DNA of 14,615 nucleotides from the NCBI GenBank assembly GCA_018238625.1, contig JABCSY010000100.1, forward strand, positions 1 to 14,615, written 5' to 3'. Below the pieces are notes generated by a model. It had not been told where the DNA came from and ran no database searches. It saw only the letters and a program-made list of their open reading frames with translations. Both the position numbers and the translations under genes were made by a program. This stretch comes from Promethearchaeota archaeon (GTDB lineage Archaea > Asgardarchaeota > Lokiarchaeia > Sigyniarchaeales > SOKP01). Below are positions 1-14,494 of the stretch, piece by piece. How positions within the stretch are numbered: the stretch's first letter is position 1; every line of letters begins with the position of its first letter.

Positions 1-1136
1 ATGAGATGCTCCTGTACTTTAATGAAAAATTTGCAAATCCGGCTTCTCTTCATTGCGATGGAGATATTGCTACGGATATTTTAGAGACATCGCGAGAAAA
101 AATTGCAGAGTTTGTGAATGCACCTAATCCATCTGACATCCTATTTACTTCTGGAGCGACCGAATCAAATAATTTGGCTTTAATAGGAGCTGCTATGAGA
201 CAGAAGAAAAAAGGGAACCACATAATTATTTCTGAAATCGAACATATATCTATCTTAAACCTTGGGAAATATTTAGAAAGACAGGGGTTTAAAGTAAGTA
301 GAGTTTCTGTAGATCGATTTGGTATCATTAAATTAGATAAACTTGAAAAGCTAATAACAGATGAGACGATTTTAATCTCAATATCAACGGCTAGTAACGA
401 AGTTGGCTCCCTTCAACCTACCGCTGAAATTAGTAGGATTGCAAGAGAAAAAGGGATATTATTTCATACTGACGCAGTTGCTAGTGAAAACATAGTTCCA
501 ATTGATGTTCAAAAGGTTCCGATAGATTTAATCACATTATCATCAAACGATATTTACGGACCAAGAGGGGTTGGCGCGTTATACTTAAAAAGGGGGGTAC
601 GAGTTAACCCTATAATAATTGGTGGCGGTCAAGAAAGAGGTATGAGGTCAGGTTCTGAAAATGTATCCGGCATCGTTGGGTTTGCTAAAGCCGCAGAAAT
701 TATGAAGGAAGAAATGCCCAAAGAATCAGAAAATTTAAAAAAGTTAAGAGATAAGTTGATTAAGAATATCTTGGAAACAATTCCTAAATCGTATTTAAAC
801 GGACATCCCGAAAAAAGACTTCCTCACAACGCACATTTTCGATTTGATTATATCGAAGGGGAATCGTTGATATTAACGCTAAAGGAACACAATATTGCTG
901 CTGCTACAGGCTCAGCTTGTAGTTCAAAAACATTAGAGGCATCTCACACGTTAATTGCAATGGGTCTTTTGCACGAAGAAGCACACGGTAGTCTACTAGT
1001 TTCTTTAGGTAGAACTACTCGCGAGCCCGATGTTGATAAGCTTATAGAAGTTTTACCAAACGAGGTAAAACGGTTGAGAAAGTTGTCTCCTTTAACGCCT
1101 CCAGAATTATTAAAAAAATATGATGAGGTAAAATAA
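1..1136 (+). CDS. iscS: IscS/MisS cysteine-desulfurase-like protein, Archaeoglobus-type (Schiff-base Lys replaced by Asp); 5'-truncated by the window edge
   Basis: Group I desulfurase motifs NPASLH, FTSGATESNN, EH, GGGQERGMRSGSEN and GSACSS (Cys codon 918-920). The frame is open upstream of the ATG at 6 (GAG at 3-5) and the N-terminal 'YxD..T' segment is missing, so the true start lies outside the window. SSNDIYGP replaces the usual S[AG]HKxYGP. Confidence 0.95.
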   Translation, partial: EMLLYFNEKFANPASLHCDGDIATDILETSREKIAEFVNAPNPSDILFTSGATESNNLALIGAAMRQKKKGNHIIISEIEHISILNLGKYLERQGFKVSRVSVDRFGIIKLDKLEKLITDETILISISTASNEVGSLQPTAEISRIAREKGILFHTDAVASENIVPIDVQKVPIDLITLSSNDIYGPRGVGALYLKRGVRVNPIIIGGGQERGMRSGSENVSGIVGFAKAAEIMKEEMPKESENLKKLRDKLIKNILETIPKSYLNGHPEKRLPHNAHFRFDYIEGESLILTLKEHNIAAATGSACSSKTLEASHTLIAMGLLHEEAHGSLLVSLGRTTREPDVDKLIEVLPNEVKRLRKLSPLTPPELLKKYDEVK

Positions 1137-1140
1137 TAAA

Positions 1141-1944
1141 ATGAAATCTACTACATATTCAGACAAAGTATTAGAGCACTTCAAAAATCCTAGGAATGTA
1201 GGTGAGATTGAGGATGCAGACGGAATTGGTCGAGTTGGGAACCCTGTTTGCGGAGACCTTATGTGGATCTATCTCAAAATTGCCAAAAATGAAAAAGATG
1301 AAGAAATAATCGAAGATATTAAATTTAAAACATTTGGTTGCGGTTCAGCTGTTTCTACATCATCCATGATTACTGAGATGGCAAAAGGTATGACTCTTGA
1401 CGAAGCGTATAAAATTACGCGACAAAATGTTGCTGACGAATTAGATGGACTTCCTCCTATAAAAATGCATTGCTCTAATCTAGCTGCTGATGCTTTAAAA
1501 GCCGCAATAGATAATTATCGTTTAGGTACCGAACCAGAAATCGAGATCGTTACGTCTTGTCAATTAGATGTTAGAATAATACTCGGAATCGATGACTTCA
1601 TTGGGAAAGGTGTCTATAAAGAAGTACCCGCGGATTTAGAAGAGCTTAAAGAAAAAAGAATTATTATAGTCGACTCAGGAGACGAATCTTTAGAGCTCGC
1701 ACTTAAACTGACAGAATATACTGGAAGAGTAATTGTTGTGACTTCTTCAAAATCAGTCCCGGGTACTGTTGAATTGAGGAAAAAACTGAAGCATTCAGAT
1801 GTAAAACTATTACAAGAATCAGAATTAATTGAAATCAAAGGAGAGCTCGATGAAGTAGAAAAAATTGTTATCCATGATTTCGATGAGGACGAGAATTACG
1901 AACTATTCGTTGATATCGTAATAGTTTTAGATTATCGATTATAA
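1141..1944 (+). CDS. iscU: IscU/MisU Fe-S scaffold (aa ~1-128) fused to a degenerate thioredoxin-reductase-like NAD(P)H-binding domain (aa ~148-264)
   Basis: YSDKVLEHFKNPRNVG, GNPVCGD (C37, D39), FKTFGCGSA (C67) and LPPIKMHC (H110, C111). It starts 4 nt after the iscS stop, with GAGGT at 1125-1129. The C-terminal part follows the TrxR middle-domain pattern by eye. Confidence 0.92.
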   Translation: MKSTTYSDKVLEHFKNPRNVGEIEDADGIGRVGNPVCGDLMWIYLKIAKNEKDEEIIEDIKFKTFGCGSAVSTSSMITEMAKGMTLDEAYKITRQNVADELDGLPPIKMHCSNLAADALKAAIDNYRLGTEPEIEIVTSCQLDVRIILGIDDFIGKGVYKEVPADLEELKEKRIIIVDSGDESLELALKLTEYTGRVIVVTSSKSVPGTVELRKKLKHSDVKLLQESELIEIKGELDEVEKIVIHDFDEDENYELFVDIVIVLDYRL

Positions 1945-1945
1945 A

Positions 1946-1954
1946 TTTTTTTTT
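1946..1954 (+). terminator. Oligo-T (T9) archaeal-type terminator after iscSU
   Basis: Run of nine T immediately after the iscU TAA. Confidence 0.5.
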
Positions 1955-2089
1955 ATCCTAAATTTTACCATAATACTCTTATTATCCATAATTTATAATA
2001 AAGAGGTTTAAATGGTGCAATTAATTCTATTTTTAAAGTAGTGATATAGTGCATCACGATCACACAACTAAAAATAAAAAGATGATGAT

Positions 2090-4462
2090 ATGGAAAAAGT
2101 TATAATTGTGGGTGGAGTTGCCGGGGGCGCTTCAACGGCAGCTCGGCTTAGAAGGTTAATGGAAGACGTAGAAATTACAGTGCTTGAAAAGGGAGAATAC
2201 GTCTCATTTGCTAACTGTGGGTTACCGTATTATATTGGTCATGTCATAAAGGACCAATCTCAATTGGAACTAATGACGCCAGAAGAATTTTGGGATCGAT
2301 TTAGGATTAAAATAAAAATTAATCACGAAGCAATTTCAATCAACAAGAAAAAGAAAACTGTTTCGGTTAAAAACCTTGAAAACGATAAAGATTTCGAATT
2401 GGACTATGATTACCTAGTACTTTCTCCTGGAGCTACCCCAATTATACCTCCATTTGAGGGCCTCGGTGATGTTCCCGTATTTACCCTGAGAACTATTCCA
2501 GATTCCGTTAAGATCAAACAATTTGTTGAAAAGAATGATGTTAAGCACGCTACCATCATCGGGGGCGGCTTTATCGGTTTAGAAATGGCTGAAAATTTGA
2601 AGCATAGAGGTGCTAAGGTAAAAATCGTGGAAATGCTTGACCAAGTTATGGCGCCTATAGATAAAGAAATAGCCCAATTCGTACATCAAGAACTATTACT
2701 AAATGGTGTCTGTTTACAATTAGAGGACCCTGTTGATTCTTTCAAATGTGATAGTGACAATTGTTTTTACGTTATTCCTAAAAGTGGGAAAAATATTAAG
2801 ACTGACATGATAATTTTAGCAATAGGGGTCAAACCAGAAAGCAAATTAGCTAAACAGGCCGATTTAAAGATTGGTCCGCGAGGGCATATTATTGTTGATC
2901 AACAAATGAAAACCTCAGATCCTTCAATATTTGCTGTAGGTGACGCAGTCCAAGTAAAAAATTTTATAACACAAGAACCCACTGGAATACCTTTAGCGGG
3001 TCCAGCAAATAAACAAGGGAGAATAGTTGCTGATGTCATTGCTGGTCGTGATACGAAGTATCAAGGAATTTTGGGAGCCTCCGTCGTAAAAGTGTTTGAT
3101 TTAACTGTTTCAACAGTAGGTTTAACTGAAAAGCAATTAAAGAAAACTGATATTAAGTACGAAAAGATTTACATACACCCTAATAACCACGCAGGTTATT
3201 ACCCTGGAGCTGTGCCAATAACTCTTAAATTGTTATTTGAAGTTCCAAGTGGAAAAATACTCGGAGTTCAAGCAGCTGGAGGTCCAGGAACAGAAAAAAG
3301 AATTGATGTAATTGCTACTGTAATTAAATTCAAAGGAACGGTGTTTGACTTAGAAGAGTTGGAACTTACTTACGCACCTCCTTTTGGTTCTGCTAAAGAT
3401 CCCGTAAACATGGCGGGATTTGTGGCTGCTAATGTAATTAAAGGTGATATGCCTATTTGGCATTGGCACGACATTGAAAAAATAAAAAACAATAATAGTT
3501 TTATACTTGATGTGAGAACACCCGAAGAATATCAAATCGGAACTATTGAAGGAGCTGTGAATATAAGCGACTTAGAATTAAGAAGTAGGCTGGATGAAGT
3601 TCCTAAAGATAAAGATATTTACATTCTCTGCGAAGTGGGGTTTAGAGGCTACCTTTCAACAAGATTATTAATTCAAAAAGGATATCATGTTAAGAATTTA
3701 TCAGGTGGATACAAATTATTTAAAACAGCAGCAGCAACAACCGAAGAAATAGCCGCTGAGTGTGGAGCATCAGAAGAAATTATGGAAGAACTAGTTGAAA
3801 GAAAAACTACAATTACGGAAGATTATATAGAAGTAGATGCGTGCGGTTTATCCTGTCCAGGGCCTTTAACTGCGCTCATTAAATCTCTTGAAGCACTACC
3901 GGAAAACAAAAAATTAAAAATTTATGCTACCGATCCAGGGTTTAAAGCGAGTGTAGAAGCTTACGCAAAATTGAATGATGCCGTTACTTTGTTATATTTA
4001 GGTAAAGAAGAAGGAAAATTGGTTGCGACGTTAGAAAAGGGACCTATAACCATCGAAGATGTTTCAGCACCGGTAAAAATTGCGAAGAAAACGAGGAAAC
4101 AATTGAGAAGTCCAGATGCACCTGCTCTATCTGAGATGAGGGCAGACGAGTTATTCGAAGCACTTGATACAGATGAATCGCCAGGACTAATGATTGATGT
4201 TCGGACACCTCATGAATATCATAGTGGACATATTAAAGACACTAAATTAATGCCGTTAGGGGAATTGATGCATAATATTGATGCTTTAAACAAATATAAG
4301 GATGAGGAAATTGTTGTAGTTTGCCATAGTGGGGCACGCTCGATGATGGCAGCCCAATTAATGGTCAGAGAGGGATTTAAAGATGTTAGAAACCTAACAG
4401 GTGGCATGATTATATGGCACCGGAATGGTTACCCTGTGTTGCCACCTAAAAAAGAATACTAG
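2090..4462 (+). CDS. CoA-disulfide/CoA-persulfide reductase fused to rhodanese, TusA and a second rhodanese domain
   Basis: GGVAGG FAD motif, SFANCGLPY (C43), GGGFIGLE, AVGDA and YAPP; rhodanese 1 (LDVR..EY, loop CEVGFR, C514); TusA (DACGLSCPGP, C589, ATDPGF); rhodanese 2 (IDVRTPHEYHSGHI, loop CHSGAR, C745, NLTGGM..W). Confidence 0.92.
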   Translation: MEKVIIVGGVAGGASTAARLRRLMEDVEITVLEKGEYVSFANCGLPYYIGHVIKDQSQLELMTPEEFWDRFRIKIKINHEAISINKKKKTVSVKNLENDKDFELDYDYLVLSPGATPIIPPFEGLGDVPVFTLRTIPDSVKIKQFVEKNDVKHATIIGGGFIGLEMAENLKHRGAKVKIVEMLDQVMAPIDKEIAQFVHQELLLNGVCLQLEDPVDSFKCDSDNCFYVIPKSGKNIKTDMIILAIGVKPESKLAKQADLKIGPRGHIIVDQQMKTSDPSIFAVGDAVQVKNFITQEPTGIPLAGPANKQGRIVADVIAGRDTKYQGILGASVVKVFDLTVSTVGLTEKQLKKTDIKYEKIYIHPNNHAGYYPGAVPITLKLLFEVPSGKILGVQAAGGPGTEKRIDVIATVIKFKGTVFDLEELELTYAPPFGSAKDPVNMAGFVAANVIKGDMPIWHWHDIEKIKNNNSFILDVRTPEEYQIGTIEGAVNISDLELRSRLDEVPKDKDIYILCEVGFRGYLSTRLLIQKGYHVKNLSGGYKLFKTAAATTEEIAAECGASEEIMEELVERKTTITEDYIEVDACGLSCPGPLTALIKSLEALPENKKLKIYATDPGFKASVEAYAKLNDAVTLLYLGKEEGKLVATLEKGPITIEDVSAPVKIAKKTRKQLRSPDAPALSEMRADELFEALDTDESPGLMIDVRTPHEYHSGHIKDTKLMPLGELMHNIDALNKYKDEEIVVVCHSGARSMMAAQLMVREGFKDVRNLTGGMIIWHRNGYPVLPPKKEY

Positions 4463-4703: not shown

Positions 4704-5288
4704 ATGAAAGAAACACCTAAAAAATTATTTGCTGCTTATGTTGGCGAATCTCAAGCTAGAAATAGATATACCTTCTTCGCATCGATAGCCAAAAAGGAAG
4801 GATATGTATTAATATCGCGAATATTTCAAGAAACTGCTGATCAAGAGCGTGAACACGGTCTAAACTTTTATAAAATGCTCCAAGAATTCAAAAAGGAAGA
4901 AAAATTTGATGATTTCCTCGTAAATGAGATGTACCCTACAACTTATGGAAAAACTATAGAAAATTTAAAATCCGCAGTTAATGGTGAAACAATGGAGTTT
5001 ACAAAACTATATCCGGATTTAGCAGATACCGCTGAAAAAGAGGGGTATCCTCATATTGCAGAAAGAACTCGTGCTATCGCTCGTGCAGAACAACATCATG
5101 CAGAACGCTACGGTAAGCTGTTGAAATTAATTGGAGATGATGCGTTCTTTAAACGAGGAGAGAAAGTAGTGTGGGTCTGTCTTGAATGCGGCTACGAAGT
5201 AGAATTAGACGAGCTTCCAGAGAATTTTGTTTGTCCAAGTTGTTCACATCCAAGGTCTTATTTCAAAAAGAAATGCGAAGTTTTCTAA
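4704..5288 (+). CDS. rbr: Rubrerythrin (di-iron four-helix bundle plus C-terminal rubredoxin-like domain)
   Basis: GESQARNRYTFFA.IAKKEGY, EREH, GETME..LYP and EQHH di-iron ligands; C-terminal CLECGY...CPSCSHP. Confidence 0.95.
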   Translation: MKETPKKLFAAYVGESQARNRYTFFASIAKKEGYVLISRIFQETADQEREHGLNFYKMLQEFKKEEKFDDFLVNEMYPTTYGKTIENLKSAVNGETMEFTKLYPDLADTAEKEGYPHIAERTRAIARAEQHHAERYGKLLKLIGDDAFFKRGEKVVWVCLECGYEVELDELPENFVCPSCSHPRSYFKKKCEVF

Positions 5289-5389
5289 ATTCCAAAATAT
5301 GTATTATAAAACTTAAGCAAAATAATTAAATATTAAACTATCAATTATTGGAAACAACTATTAACTAAAATAACGATAGTGAAAGCGAT

Positions 5390-5776
5390 ATGAAACAAAA
5401 AGAGATATACAAATGTGAAATATGTGGAAAGGTAATCGAAATCCTTAAACCAGGCGTACCTGAAACCATCTGTTGTGGAAAACCCATGGTCTTAATGGGA
5501 GAAAAGACCGCTGATTGGAAAGGAGAGAAACACGTTCCTAAAATTACGATTGAAGGGAACAAAGTTACAGTAGATGTTGGCGTATCAATGGGAACTCCAC
5601 ACCCTATGACAGAAGAGCATTATATTATGTGGATTGAGTTAATCTGCAAAGACAATTGTTATAAGCGCAAGTTTTTAAAACCTGGAGACGAACCTAAAGC
5701 TACGTTTGTTGTAGCGGATACTGAAGTTGTAGGCGCACGAGAATATTGTAATTTACACGGTTTATGGAAGAGTTAA
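5390..5776 (+). CDS. dfx: Desulfoferrodoxin (2Fe superoxide reductase)
   Basis: Desulforedoxin domain YKCEICG...CCGKPM; SOR centre EKHVP, HPMTEEHYIMWIE and YCNLHGLW. Confidence 0.96.
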   Translation: MKQKEIYKCEICGKVIEILKPGVPETICCGKPMVLMGEKTADWKGEKHVPKITIEGNKVTVDVGVSMGTPHPMTEEHYIMWIELICKDNCYKRKFLKPGDEPKATFVVADTEVVGAREYCNLHGLWKS

Positions 5777-13150: not shown

Positions 13151-14494
13151 TTATTTCTTTTTAAACCCTTCTTTAGGGTTTTTACAATTTGGGCATCTCC
13201 AATCTTTTTGTAAATTTTTAAAAAGAACATCCATTTTAGATTCGTCGTATTCTGCGCCGCAGTTAGAGCACTCGTAAATATATAATTCAAGCAACTTTCT
13301 GAGCTCTTCCTTATCCACATCTTGTTCCATCTTTTTGTAAACGTAAGAAATTGCTTTATTATCGCCGAACAAAATTGCTCCTTTGAGTTTATTATCTTTC
13401 AGCACAATTTTTTGATAGCAACAATCTTTCTTATCAGATTTTTTTAAGATTTCCCACCCCGCCCCTTCTTCTTTTATCGGGTCAATATTACCAATCGAAG
13501 TTAGTTCCAACCCTACGATTTTAAGAGTGTTTTTAGGCGTAGTTCCTTCGTATTCAACTTTTTTCAATTCGAGAACTGAAGCGGCTACAATTTTGGATTG
13601 CTCCATACAAGCGGGTATTATTCCCCAAACTTGGTCTTTATATTGGACGCAATCTCCAACTGCGTAAATATCTTTTTCGCTTGTTTCTAAAAATTCGTTA
13701 ATAATTATCCCCCGATCCGTTTTAATATTAGCGCGTTTTGCCAAATCTATAACAGGTCGGATCCCCGCTTGAATTAACACTATATCAGAATCGAACTTTC
13801 TCCCATCTTTTAATTTTATGCCATTCACCATTTCATCCCCTAGAATTTCTTCAGTTGCAGCGTTTAATATCACTTTAATTCCTCTACTTTCAATCTCATC
13901 TTTTAGCATCGTACCGCATTCTTCATCTAGTTGTCTCGGTAACAGTCGGGGAAAAAATTCGACAACGGTCGTATCTAAATTACAATCGCTGATCTGACTT
14001 GCTAATTCTAAACCTAAAAGACCCCCTCCAATTACAATAGCTTTCTTTACTGCAAATTTTTCAATGTAATCTCTGATCTTTAATGCATCGTCTATAGTCC
14101 GTAAAGTGAAAACTCCTTTATTACCATCCTTCATTTCTCTTGCATTTTTAATAGGTGGAATATTTGGCGTGCTTCCTAAAGCAAGGATCAGCTTATCATA
14201 CAGTACTGGTTCGCCATCCTTCTCAAAAAGGACAGTTTTATTCTTTAGATCGATGTTTACTGCTTTCTTATGCAAATATAAGTTCAAATCTTTGTTTTCG
14301 TACCATTCTTCGTCGAAAACAATTAAATCTTCGGCTTTAATTTTCCCAGGAATTAATTCTGGAAGATGTACCCTCGAATAATAAGGATAAGTTTCTTGAG
14401 TAAAAATCTCAATTTCTACTTCATTGTTGAGAAATCTAATGTTTTGAGCAGAAAAAGTACCGGCTACATTATTTCCCAATATGACAACTTTCAT
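13151..14494 (-). CDS. NAD(P)H:rubredoxin oxidoreductase-like flavoprotein (NirB-N/NROR family) with a fused C-terminal rubredoxin domain
   Basis: YYSR..L, YDKLILALGS, GVFTLRT, GGGLLGLE, VE...RLLPRQLD, AGIRP, YAVGDC and YQKIV..DNKLKGAILFGD; C-terminal YECSNCG-x20-CPNC..PK..F (nt ~13154-13282). Confidence 0.9.
   Translation of the reverse strand: MKVVILGNNVAGTFSAQNIRFLNNEVEIEIFTQETYPYYSRVHLPELIPGKIKAEDLIVFDEEWYENKDLNLYLHKKAVNIDLKNKTVLFEKDGEPVLYDKLILALGSTPNIPPIKNAREMKDGNKGVFTLRTIDDALKIRDYIEKFAVKKAIVIGGGLLGLELASQISDCNLDTTVVEFFPRLLPRQLDEECGTMLKDEIESRGIKVILNAATEEILGDEMVNGIKLKDGRKFDSDIVLIQAGIRPVIDLAKRANIKTDRGIIINEFLETSEKDIYAVGDCVQYKDQVWGIIPACMEQSKIVAASVLELKKVEYEGTTPKNTLKIVGLELTSIGNIDPIKEEGAGWEILKKSDKKDCCYQKIVLKDNKLKGAILFGDNKAISYVYKKMEQDVDKEELRKLLELYIYECSNCGAEYDESKMDVLFKNLQKDWRCPNCKNPKEGFKKK

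Follow-up and report, generated by a model that had tools for sequence, protein, structure and literature searches.

The DNA analysed here (the window) is a 14,615-nucleotide stretch of a Lokiarchaeial genome that begins with three co-oriented open reading frames (ORFs; 3-1136, 1141-1944 and 2090-4462, all +), encoding an IscS-like protein, an IscU scaffold with an extra C-terminal domain, and a coenzyme A-disulfide reductase (CoADR)-like enzyme with rhodanese (Rhd) and TusA domains; the question raised by this locus is whether the three form one iron-sulfur (Fe-S) assembly system, and how a desulfurase homologue that has lost its catalytic lysine would be supplied with sulfur. A first-pass annotation had described three adjacent, co-oriented genes, each atypical, and this description stands: all three are real and as it had them. 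The object of interest is the gene set tusA-(dsrE)-iscS-iscU, in which iscS carries Asp for the lysine and iscU is fused to a relic thioredoxin reductase (TrxR) domain; it is a variant of the Archaeoglobus/MIS kind, and the window holds its distal half only. As a whole, the reading that positions 1-1944 are the distal part of a conserved carrier-fed operon, and that the reductase is separate, separately regulated and not required, is considered somewhat more probable than its denial.

The IscS gene (3..1136, +) is of the Asp, or lysine-less, type and encodes a member of Pfam family Aminotran_5 (PF00266, E 1.4e-67); the best solved relative of the protein is Archaeoglobus fulgidus IscS2 (PDB 4eb5, E 8.5e-125 over residues 1-363). 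The motif SSNDIYGP is common to both, and the engineered D199K chain 4r5f has SSNKIYGP there; since SSNK of 4r5f aligns with SSND, Asp occupies the position of the lysine that binds pyridoxal phosphate (PLP). The mobile-loop motif GSACSS is intact, and the 4eb5/4r5f alignment together with this motif bears out the initial observation of an IscS without PLP lysine that keeps its loop Cys. The protein scores under the equivalog cut-offs of both the NifS model (440.7 vs. 530.75 bits) and the IscS model (369.7 vs. 643.2 bits). In place of the PLP lysine, 58/59 Lokiarchaeial cassette IscS proteins have Asp and the remaining one has Glu, and the loop Cys is found in 60/60 IscS-like ORFs, including the single Lys-type paralogue in locus L057. 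In a tree, the 96 Asp/Glu-type IscS sequences fall into a single clade (support 0.88) that leaves out six Lys-type sequences, a small outgroup sample; with these six outgroups and this support, a single origin of the Asp/Glu type is suggested.

The A. fulgidus IscS2-IscU pair (PDB 4eb5, 4eb7 and 4hvk; D199K variant 4r5f) has the same Asp for lysine in SSNDIYGP and the same loop Cys. According to the accessible text of a review (PMC8918507), A. fulgidus IscS (Asp199) is without desulfurase activity, binds pyridoxamine phosphate and is thought to donate a Cys ligand to the cluster; binding of a [2Fe-2S] cluster by the pair is reported there and in the accessible text of a 2026 review (PMC13066941), and the available part of the former leaves cluster assembly and sulfur supply without desulfurase activity open for this type. 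The isc1 system of Methanosarcina acetivorans (IscS1 MA0808, IscU1 MA0807) offers a second parallel, as its IscS1 likewise lacks the catalytic lysine and its IscU1 is oversized at 24.2 kDa, like the fused IscU here (PMC7585200, accessible text). The A. fulgidus chain 4eb5_C has 138 residues in total, whereas the IscU of the window carries an additional 137-residue relic TrxR domain; the cassette also places a dedicated tusA (in relatives also dsrE) before iscS, in a comparison that for A. fulgidus is made at the protein level only.

The scaffold domain of the IscU fusion comprises residues 1-130 (1141..1530, +), and NifU_N spans residues 5-127 with E 4.8e-46; the fusion scores 194.9 bits against TIGR03419, above the 187.9-bit cut-off. 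The residues C37, D39, C67, H110 and C111, which include the cluster ligands, are invariant in 41/41 aligned IscU fusions. The AlphaFold2 model (mean predicted local distance difference test score, pLDDT, 84.7) features two domains joined by a linker at residues 134-144 with pLDDT below 50; the N-terminal domain aligns by Foldseek with 4eb5_C at a root-mean-square deviation (rmsd) of 0.9 Å. The flexible linker and the relic TrxR-type NADPH domain occupy 1531..1944 (+). This tail has a Pyr_redox match at residues 173-245 (E 1.2e-4), and the TrxR model TIGR01292 matches residues 149-261 with profile positions 119-231 only (E 9e-11, 41.1 bits vs. a 343.45-bit cut-off); Foldseek pairs it with the TrxR NADPH domain 3f8d_C (E 8.3e-11, 119 columns). 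Among low-molecular-mass TrxR and TrxR-like ferredoxin-NADP reductases (PDB 3f8d, 2zbw, 3ab1) the fold of the tail is alike (E 8.3e-11 to 3.6e-10, ~120 columns, rmsd 1.8-2.1 Å); unlike these enzymes, it lacks both the FAD domain and a CxxC pair and has DSGDES at the GxGxxA position; its agreement with TrxR is in fold alone. A degenerate TrxR-like domain on IscU had been recognised at the outset, and both TIGR01292 and the predicted fold agree with it; the relic domain has lost its redox motifs and probably serves for docking or as a structural element. The linker holds a sole Cys, Cys140 (window 1558-1560), which at least 90% of 62 aligned class fusions retain; it could serve as a mobile persulfide-carrying or ligand Cys.

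The relic domain is matched in 133/151 sampled genomes of the class at E 1e-5, and in 39/40 high-quality genomes; about 128 genomes are taken to carry a real fusion because in 5/133 the sole match is a weak, ~315-aa TrxR-like frame. Among 1.84 billion cluster representatives, only 89 clusters match the domain at E 1e-3. Several apparent variants were rejected: supposed lone relic domains (P0126, P0127, P0134, P0143 and others) come from truncated gene calls beginning at the internal Met of MHCSNLAADAL, long IscU-TrxR frames in G091 and G130 (452-466 aa) are mere stop-to-stop frames, the long L067 ORF is an upstream-extended call whose true start precedes an ordinary IscU fusion, and P0169 (431 aa), a candidate full-length IscU-TrxR fusion, has an N-terminus that is not IscU.

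The surroundings of the pair were compared in 60 loci of ±8 kb taken from the relic-domain matches, which were hand-picked to cover all genera and favour long contigs. The IscS gene abuts the IscU fusion in 59/60 loci (L069 is a fragment), with a spacing of -14 to +19 nt across the Lokiarchaeial loci and 4 nt in the window. In 58/59 Lokiarchaeial loci the gene immediately upstream of the set, on the same strand, is tusA, the exception (L020) being a contig end; a dsrE-like gene stands between tusA and iscS in 34/59, including every family except f1. Pfam identifies the two proteins as TusA (PF01206, E 1e-18, in the L013 orthologue) and DsrE (PF02635, E 7.5e-15). The 94 cassette TusA proteins share the signature ADDPAAEED and a consensus GL.CP.P around the carrier Cys. 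Because dsrE lies between tusA and iscS in these 34 loci and in every non-f1 family, the ancestral operon is read from the gene orders as tusA-dsrE-iscS[Asp]-iscU::relic, from which the window lineage has lost dsrE; by tblastn, no orthologue of the cassette dsrE was found in its own genome.

In the genome of the window the operon is divided between two contigs. The window is the entire contig C81 of a 4.29-Mb metagenome-assembled genome (MAG; 201 contigs, 97.9% complete, 7.6% contaminated), and about 20 codons at the 5' end of iscS are missing at the contig end; these are supplied by contig C36, whose terminal 1205 bases overlap window positions 2-1206 with 1135/1205 nt identical (94.2%). Identity is 98-100% at the ends of the overlap and 84-89% in its middle, with 13 amino-acid differences in IscS; with identity high at the ends and low in the middle, the two contig ends probably represent strain variants of one locus, a bubble that broke the assembly inside iscS and parted tusA from its operon. 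The full-length strain variant of iscS is C36:71-1261(-), and a stand-alone tusA of 84 residues (C36:1297-1551) lies 35 nt upstream of it. In this genome, then, tusA directly precedes iscS on the same strand and iscU directly follows, an order which presupposes that C36 and C81 form one locus.

When one genome per prokaryote species was scanned with the IscS[Asp] alignment, 80 loci were obtained, of which 37 (L116-L152), mostly from other phyla, are more distant; going by their record titles, they come from Helarchaeota, Thorarchaeota, Methanobacteriota and Halobacteriota MAGs, from Deltaproteobacteria (Syntrophaceae, Smithella, NaphS2) and from WOR-3, Acidobacteriota, Aminicenantes and Actinomycetota. 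These loci have tusA in 35/37, dsrE in 27/37 and a full-length IscU fusion with the relic domain in 28/37, the remainder being cut at contig ends or split; the genes that flank the cassette are unrelated from locus to locus. On gene content and order, the cassette thus appears to travel as a unit across archaeal and bacterial phyla. Outside f1 it often adjoins rubrerythrin, desulfoferrodoxin, ferritin, OsmC or YgbA_NO genes (L125, L131-L134, L136, L137, L141, L064-L066, L072); an oxygen-, NO- or iron-stress gene is the immediate same-strand neighbour in 9/32 loci titled as other phyla, as a raw count. The first-pass annotation had tied sulfur carriers to the lysine-less IscS-IscU pair, and this part stood, with tusA in 58/59 loci, dsrE in 34/59 and both in other phyla; the identity of the carrier did not, as the carrier linked to the pair is the off-window TusA on C36.

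Among known systems the cassette is also close to the minimal ISC system MIS (MisS/MisU), which is likewise an iscS-iscU pair without chaperones, ferredoxin or carrier protein, and is found in archaea and anaerobes; according to the accessible text of the 2026 review, MIS can use sulfide, has no additional components, and has electron donors that are unclear (PMC13066941). In contrast to MIS, the cassette adds TusA, DsrE and the fused relic domain, and its MisS-like protein is without the lysine. In the literature searched, which left subscription journals largely out of scope, no description was found of the tusA/dsrE link, of the relic domain on IscU, or of a connection between CoADR and Fe-S assembly.

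The favoured mechanism is built on these likenesses. Positions 1-1944 would constitute the distal part of a tusA-(dsrE)-iscS[Lys→Asp]-iscU::relic-TrxR operon encoding an Archaeoglobus-type (MIS-like) scaffold pair. The IscS cannot form the PLP-lysine aldimine, and therefore cysteine desulfuration is not expected of it; by homology to the A. fulgidus structure, its loop Cys would act as the fourth ligand to a cluster built on IscU. Most likely the dedicated TusA, loaded by DsrE where this is present, brings protein persulfide to the loop Cys or to IscU; delivery by TusA is proposed because of the conserved gene linkage and the known contact between IscS and TusA in E. coli. As the ultimate source, sulfane sulfur or sulfide from the environment or from metabolism is possible, and so is cysteine through a Lys-type IscS.

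The reductase gene (2090..4462, +) encodes a CoADR-Rhd-TusA-Rhd protein in which Pfam recognises Pyr_redox_2, Pyr_redox and Pyr_redox_dim, two rhodanese domains, and TusA at residues 580-650 (PF01206, E 3.1e-12); on the DNA, the CoADR part spans ~2096-3427 (C43), Rhd1 3479-3727 (C514), TusA 3827-4039 (C589) and Rhd2 4166-4450 (C745). Residues 1-547 align end to end with CoADR-RHD (PDB 3icr, E 7e-190), Npsr (3nta, E 1e-169) and CoA-persulfide reductase (8a56, E 6.6e-150), which have the same catalytic Cys43 and rhodanese Cys514; compared with CoADR-RHD and Npsr, the protein has an extra TusA and second rhodanese domain (residues 580-787). Against TIGR03385 (CoA-disulfide reductase) it reaches 529 bits, under the 578.8-bit cut-off. 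C43, C514, C589 and C745 are invariant in 36/36 aligned orthologues, as is C589-P-G-P, and the early description of a CoADR with three Cys-intact sulfur-carrier domains is borne out. The single catalytic Cys in SFANCG, the Rossmann and dimerisation domains and the C-terminal rhodanese Cys that characterise CoADR-RHD and Npsr are all present, and the enzyme is predicted to be an NAD(P)H-dependent CoA-persulfide/polysulfide reductase of this type with an extended internal sulfur relay. Its TusA domain forms a clade of its own (36/36 tips, support 1.0), averages 26% identity to the cassette TusA and is without the ADDPAAEED signature; a homologue search with the Rhd-TusA-Rhd tail listed only close Asgard orthologues (61-99% identity).

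Between iscU and the reductase lies a gap of 145 nt (1945..2089, +) with a T9 tract (1946-1954) right after the iscU stop, both of which had been entered as a caveat to co-transcription and are borne out by the sequence. The T-run after iscU would suit an oligo-T terminator of the archaeal type; a run of at least five T within 30 nt past the stop is found for 51/59 iscU fusions vs. 152/487 (31%) other genes and 0/60 iscS genes. Further along the gap are a TATA-like TTTTTAAA (2030-2037) and the palindrome GTGATATAGTGCATCAC (2041-2057), which occurs once in the window and is kept upstream of the reductase in L013, L014, L016, L018, L019 and L021; together these look like the reductase's own promoter with a candidate operator. 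Assembled contigs of relatives (90-99% alike; RNA libraries X3, X5 and X10, with X12 of unspecified kind) give partial coverage of iscS, iscU, the reductase, rubrerythrin and desulfoferrodoxin; among the contigs listed none bridges 1945-2089, DNA carry-over is possible, and the set decides co-transcription neither way. One X12 contig joins 1842 to 4698 and skips the reductase, a weak join with 22 letters on one side; it would represent a deletion of the reductase like that described below for genome G097, and is weakly supported.

Synteny places the reductase downstream of the cassette and co-oriented in 37/60 loci, all of them in genera g1, g2, g3, g6 and g7 of family f1. In 20 of the 37 no gene separates it from iscU (gaps of 113-577 nt), in 15 opposite-strand genes intervene, and in two the interveners are on the same strand. 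The opposite-strand interveners are mostly genes for an HdrD-like CCG/4Fe-4S protein. In the g2 loci L031-L034, L036 and L038-L042 this HdrD/GlpC-like protein is 377-380 aa long, has two CCG domains and a 4Fe-4S dicluster domain, and is transcribed divergently from the reductase; in three of these loci an OsmC-like gene also lies between iscU and the reductase. The g2 arrangement gives a hint that a unit for handling disulfides or persulfides is built around the reductase, not around IscSU.

Across the class, the Rhd-TusA-Rhd tail matches 100/151 genomes at E 1e-30; at the same threshold no match was found in g4 (0/5), g5 (0/7), f3, f5 or f6, all of which bear the cassette, and about 31 class genomes with the IscU fusion are without a tail match, two of them rated 100% complete. 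The reductase is found in none of the 37 loci L116-L152. G097 (L015, G097:C66), whose proteins are 95-96% identical to those of the window, has iscS-iscU intact and the reductase as a 61-codon 3' remnant with two TAG stop codons, directly followed by rubrerythrin; in G010 the reductase is 261 kb away from the cassette. The genes upstream of the cassette (a coiled-coil protein, an ABC transporter and a corrinoid protein) are as syntenic within the family as the reductase, and synteny at such depth is therefore not specific. Neither adjacency consistently free of opposite-strand genes nor co-occurrence across the cassette lineages is found for iscS-iscU and the reductase. Linkage of the reductase is, in the sampled loci, confined to five genera of f1 and the cassette itself ranges far wider, which is the outcome of the cross-genome comparison that the first-pass annotation had proposed; its view of the reductase as a member of the Fe-S module is not supported, in view of the 37/60 loci, the 0/37 in L116-L152, the loss in G097 and the separate TusA clade.

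Some observations weigh against a reductase that is independent of the cassette. Where cassette and reductase occur together, the latter almost always follows within 6 kb and in the same orientation (~74 genomes and the window's own), and this association still holds at ~62% protein identity. Two related Deltaproteobacteria MAGs (L123, L124) have a CoADR-family gene directly upstream of tusA, which is an independent co-location of this family with the cassette. The reductase is adjacent in 20/24 loci without dsrE vs. 16/34 with dsrE, in related and hence non-independent genomes; L058 is without both dsrE and the reductase, and a pattern in which the reductase compensates for a lost dsrE is suggestive at best, being confounded by relatedness. 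The CoADR-family genes of L123 (~2990-4137) and L124 (~2765-4158) also have an in-frame TGA at the catalytic Cys (SYAA-TGA-GIPYY), and probably encode a selenocysteine enzyme; L123 contains masked bases, and the L124 gene is in three pieces.

The genome of the window also holds other sulfur genes. On contig C134 there is an iscS of the Lys type (ATAHKLYGPKG) accompanied by a plain iscU, and the genome has two further IscU-like genes and a SufB-like gene. All 4/4 single-contig relatives carry both SAHK-type and SSND-type IscS, as does the window's own genome (5/5), and orthologues at least 64% identical to its Lys-type protein occur in ~105 genomes of f1; in L057, whose Lys-type paralogue is the only Lys-type gene in the sampled loci, the Lys-type and Asp-type pairs lie 4.5 kb apart. 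As the Lys-type IscS co-exists with the cassette, cysteine could remain the ultimate sulfur source, through Lys-type IscS and then TusA. The assertion of cysteine INDEPENDENCE ('cysteine-independent' assembly) is accordingly not borne out, a Lys-type IscS being present in 5/5 genomes checked. A second sulfur-relay cluster, TusA-DsrE-DsrE-DsrH with DrsE_2, lies at C156:44985-46885 (-) beside a divergent AsnC-type regulator gene; given this cluster, the cassette TusA is regarded as a dedicated paralogue. For cassette-type TusA, tblastn gave matches in this genome only on C36 and C156, and none beside the Lys-type iscS.

Alternatives to the favoured reading differ in the source of sulfur and in the part assigned to the reductase. 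The sulfur may be cysteine-derived: a Lys-type IscS would make persulfide, TusA (with DsrE) would shuttle it, and IscS(Asp)-IscU would be a platform perhaps for oxidative or iron stress, to which the reductase is unrelated. This is a possible but less probable reading; it draws on the co-existence of SAHK and SSND genes in the window's genome and 4/4 relatives, the ~105 f1 genomes with Lys-type orthologues, the closely spaced pairs of L057, the stress genes beside the cassette in 9/32 loci of other phyla, and the passage of persulfide from IscS to TusA in E. coli (PMC2854127, accessible text), yet tusA is never beside the Lys-type gene in the window's genome, and it is the Asp-type gene to which tusA and dsrE are linked. 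Another function altogether, in which the cassette would traffic sulfur for thiolated tRNA, molybdenum cofactor or similar products and IscS(Asp) would be a TusA adaptor, recalls the classical roles of TusA in tRNA thiolation and molybdenum cofactor synthesis (PMC13066941, accessible text); it is considered highly improbable, as the IscU cluster ligands are all kept (41/41), the A. fulgidus pair binds [2Fe-2S] in the available text of both reviews (PMC13066941, PMC8918507), and the separate C156 cluster fits the classical relay.

The model of the first-pass annotation, in which the reductase works within the Fe-S module, NAD(P)H drives sulfane sulfur to the IscS Cys or IscU, and cysteine is not needed, is judged unlikely; it is retained because proximity, L123/L124 and the pattern of dsrE loss favour some link. 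To its credit are the co-oriented reductase near the cassette in g1, g2, g3, g6 and g7, the relay cysteines invariant in 36/36, the CoADR-family gene adjoining tusA in L123 and L124, the loss of dsrE in 24/58 loci with the reductase adjacent in 20/24 of these vs. 16/34 (non-independent), and the electron donors of MIS, which the accessible text of PMC13066941 calls unclear. It is opposed by the reductase not being found in ~31 cassette genomes or in L116-L152 (0/37), by the deletion in G097 with the cassette intact, by L058 without both genes, by opposite-strand genes intervening in 15/37 loci, by the terminator-like T-tract and putative separate promoter/operator between the genes, by the separate clade of its TusA domain (26% average identity to the cassette TusA), and by the Lys-type IscS in 5/5 genomes. 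A more far-reaching version has a self-contained, desulfurase-free cassette fed from DsrE through TusA to the loop Cys and IscU, with the reductase in the dsrE-less lineage as an NAD(P)H front end for sulfur and electrons; the enzyme would then harvest polysulfide, thiosulfate or CoA persulfide and replace the reducing power of the decayed IscU domain. We regard this as quite doubtful.

Returning to the favoured reading of a separate reductase, this enzyme most likely belongs with the adjoining oxygen- and reactive-sulfur-defence genes: rubrerythrin, desulfoferrodoxin and the NADH:rubredoxin-reductase-rubredoxin fusion; in relatives the defence neighbours would also include FprA-like, OsmC and HdrD-like genes. 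By Pfam, the same strand downstream of the reductase encodes rubrerythrin, desulfoferrodoxin, a CitMHS transporter and a HAD hydrolase, and the opposite strand of the window an MFS transporter, an acyl-CoA dehydrogenase, an amidohydrolase and the fusion of NADH:rubredoxin reductase with rubredoxin. Rubrerythrin, desulfoferrodoxin and the fusion lie at 4704-5776 and 13151-14494 (-); in relatives an FprA-like flavodiiron protein is also encoded, next to the acyl-CoA dehydrogenase, and together these amount to a complete anaerobe oxygen-detoxification set around the locus. Pfam finds no ferredoxin gene among the 11 ORFs of the window, in agreement with the initial remark that ferredoxin is not encoded here.

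With a dedicated TusA, usually accompanied by DsrE, linked to the lysine-less IscS-IscU pair across phyla, the question of how this pair is supplied with sulfur becomes a concrete persulfide-transfer hypothesis. The persulfide reductase, for its part, is better annotated as a separately regulated reactive-sulfur/oxygen defence enzyme than as part of the Fe-S system.

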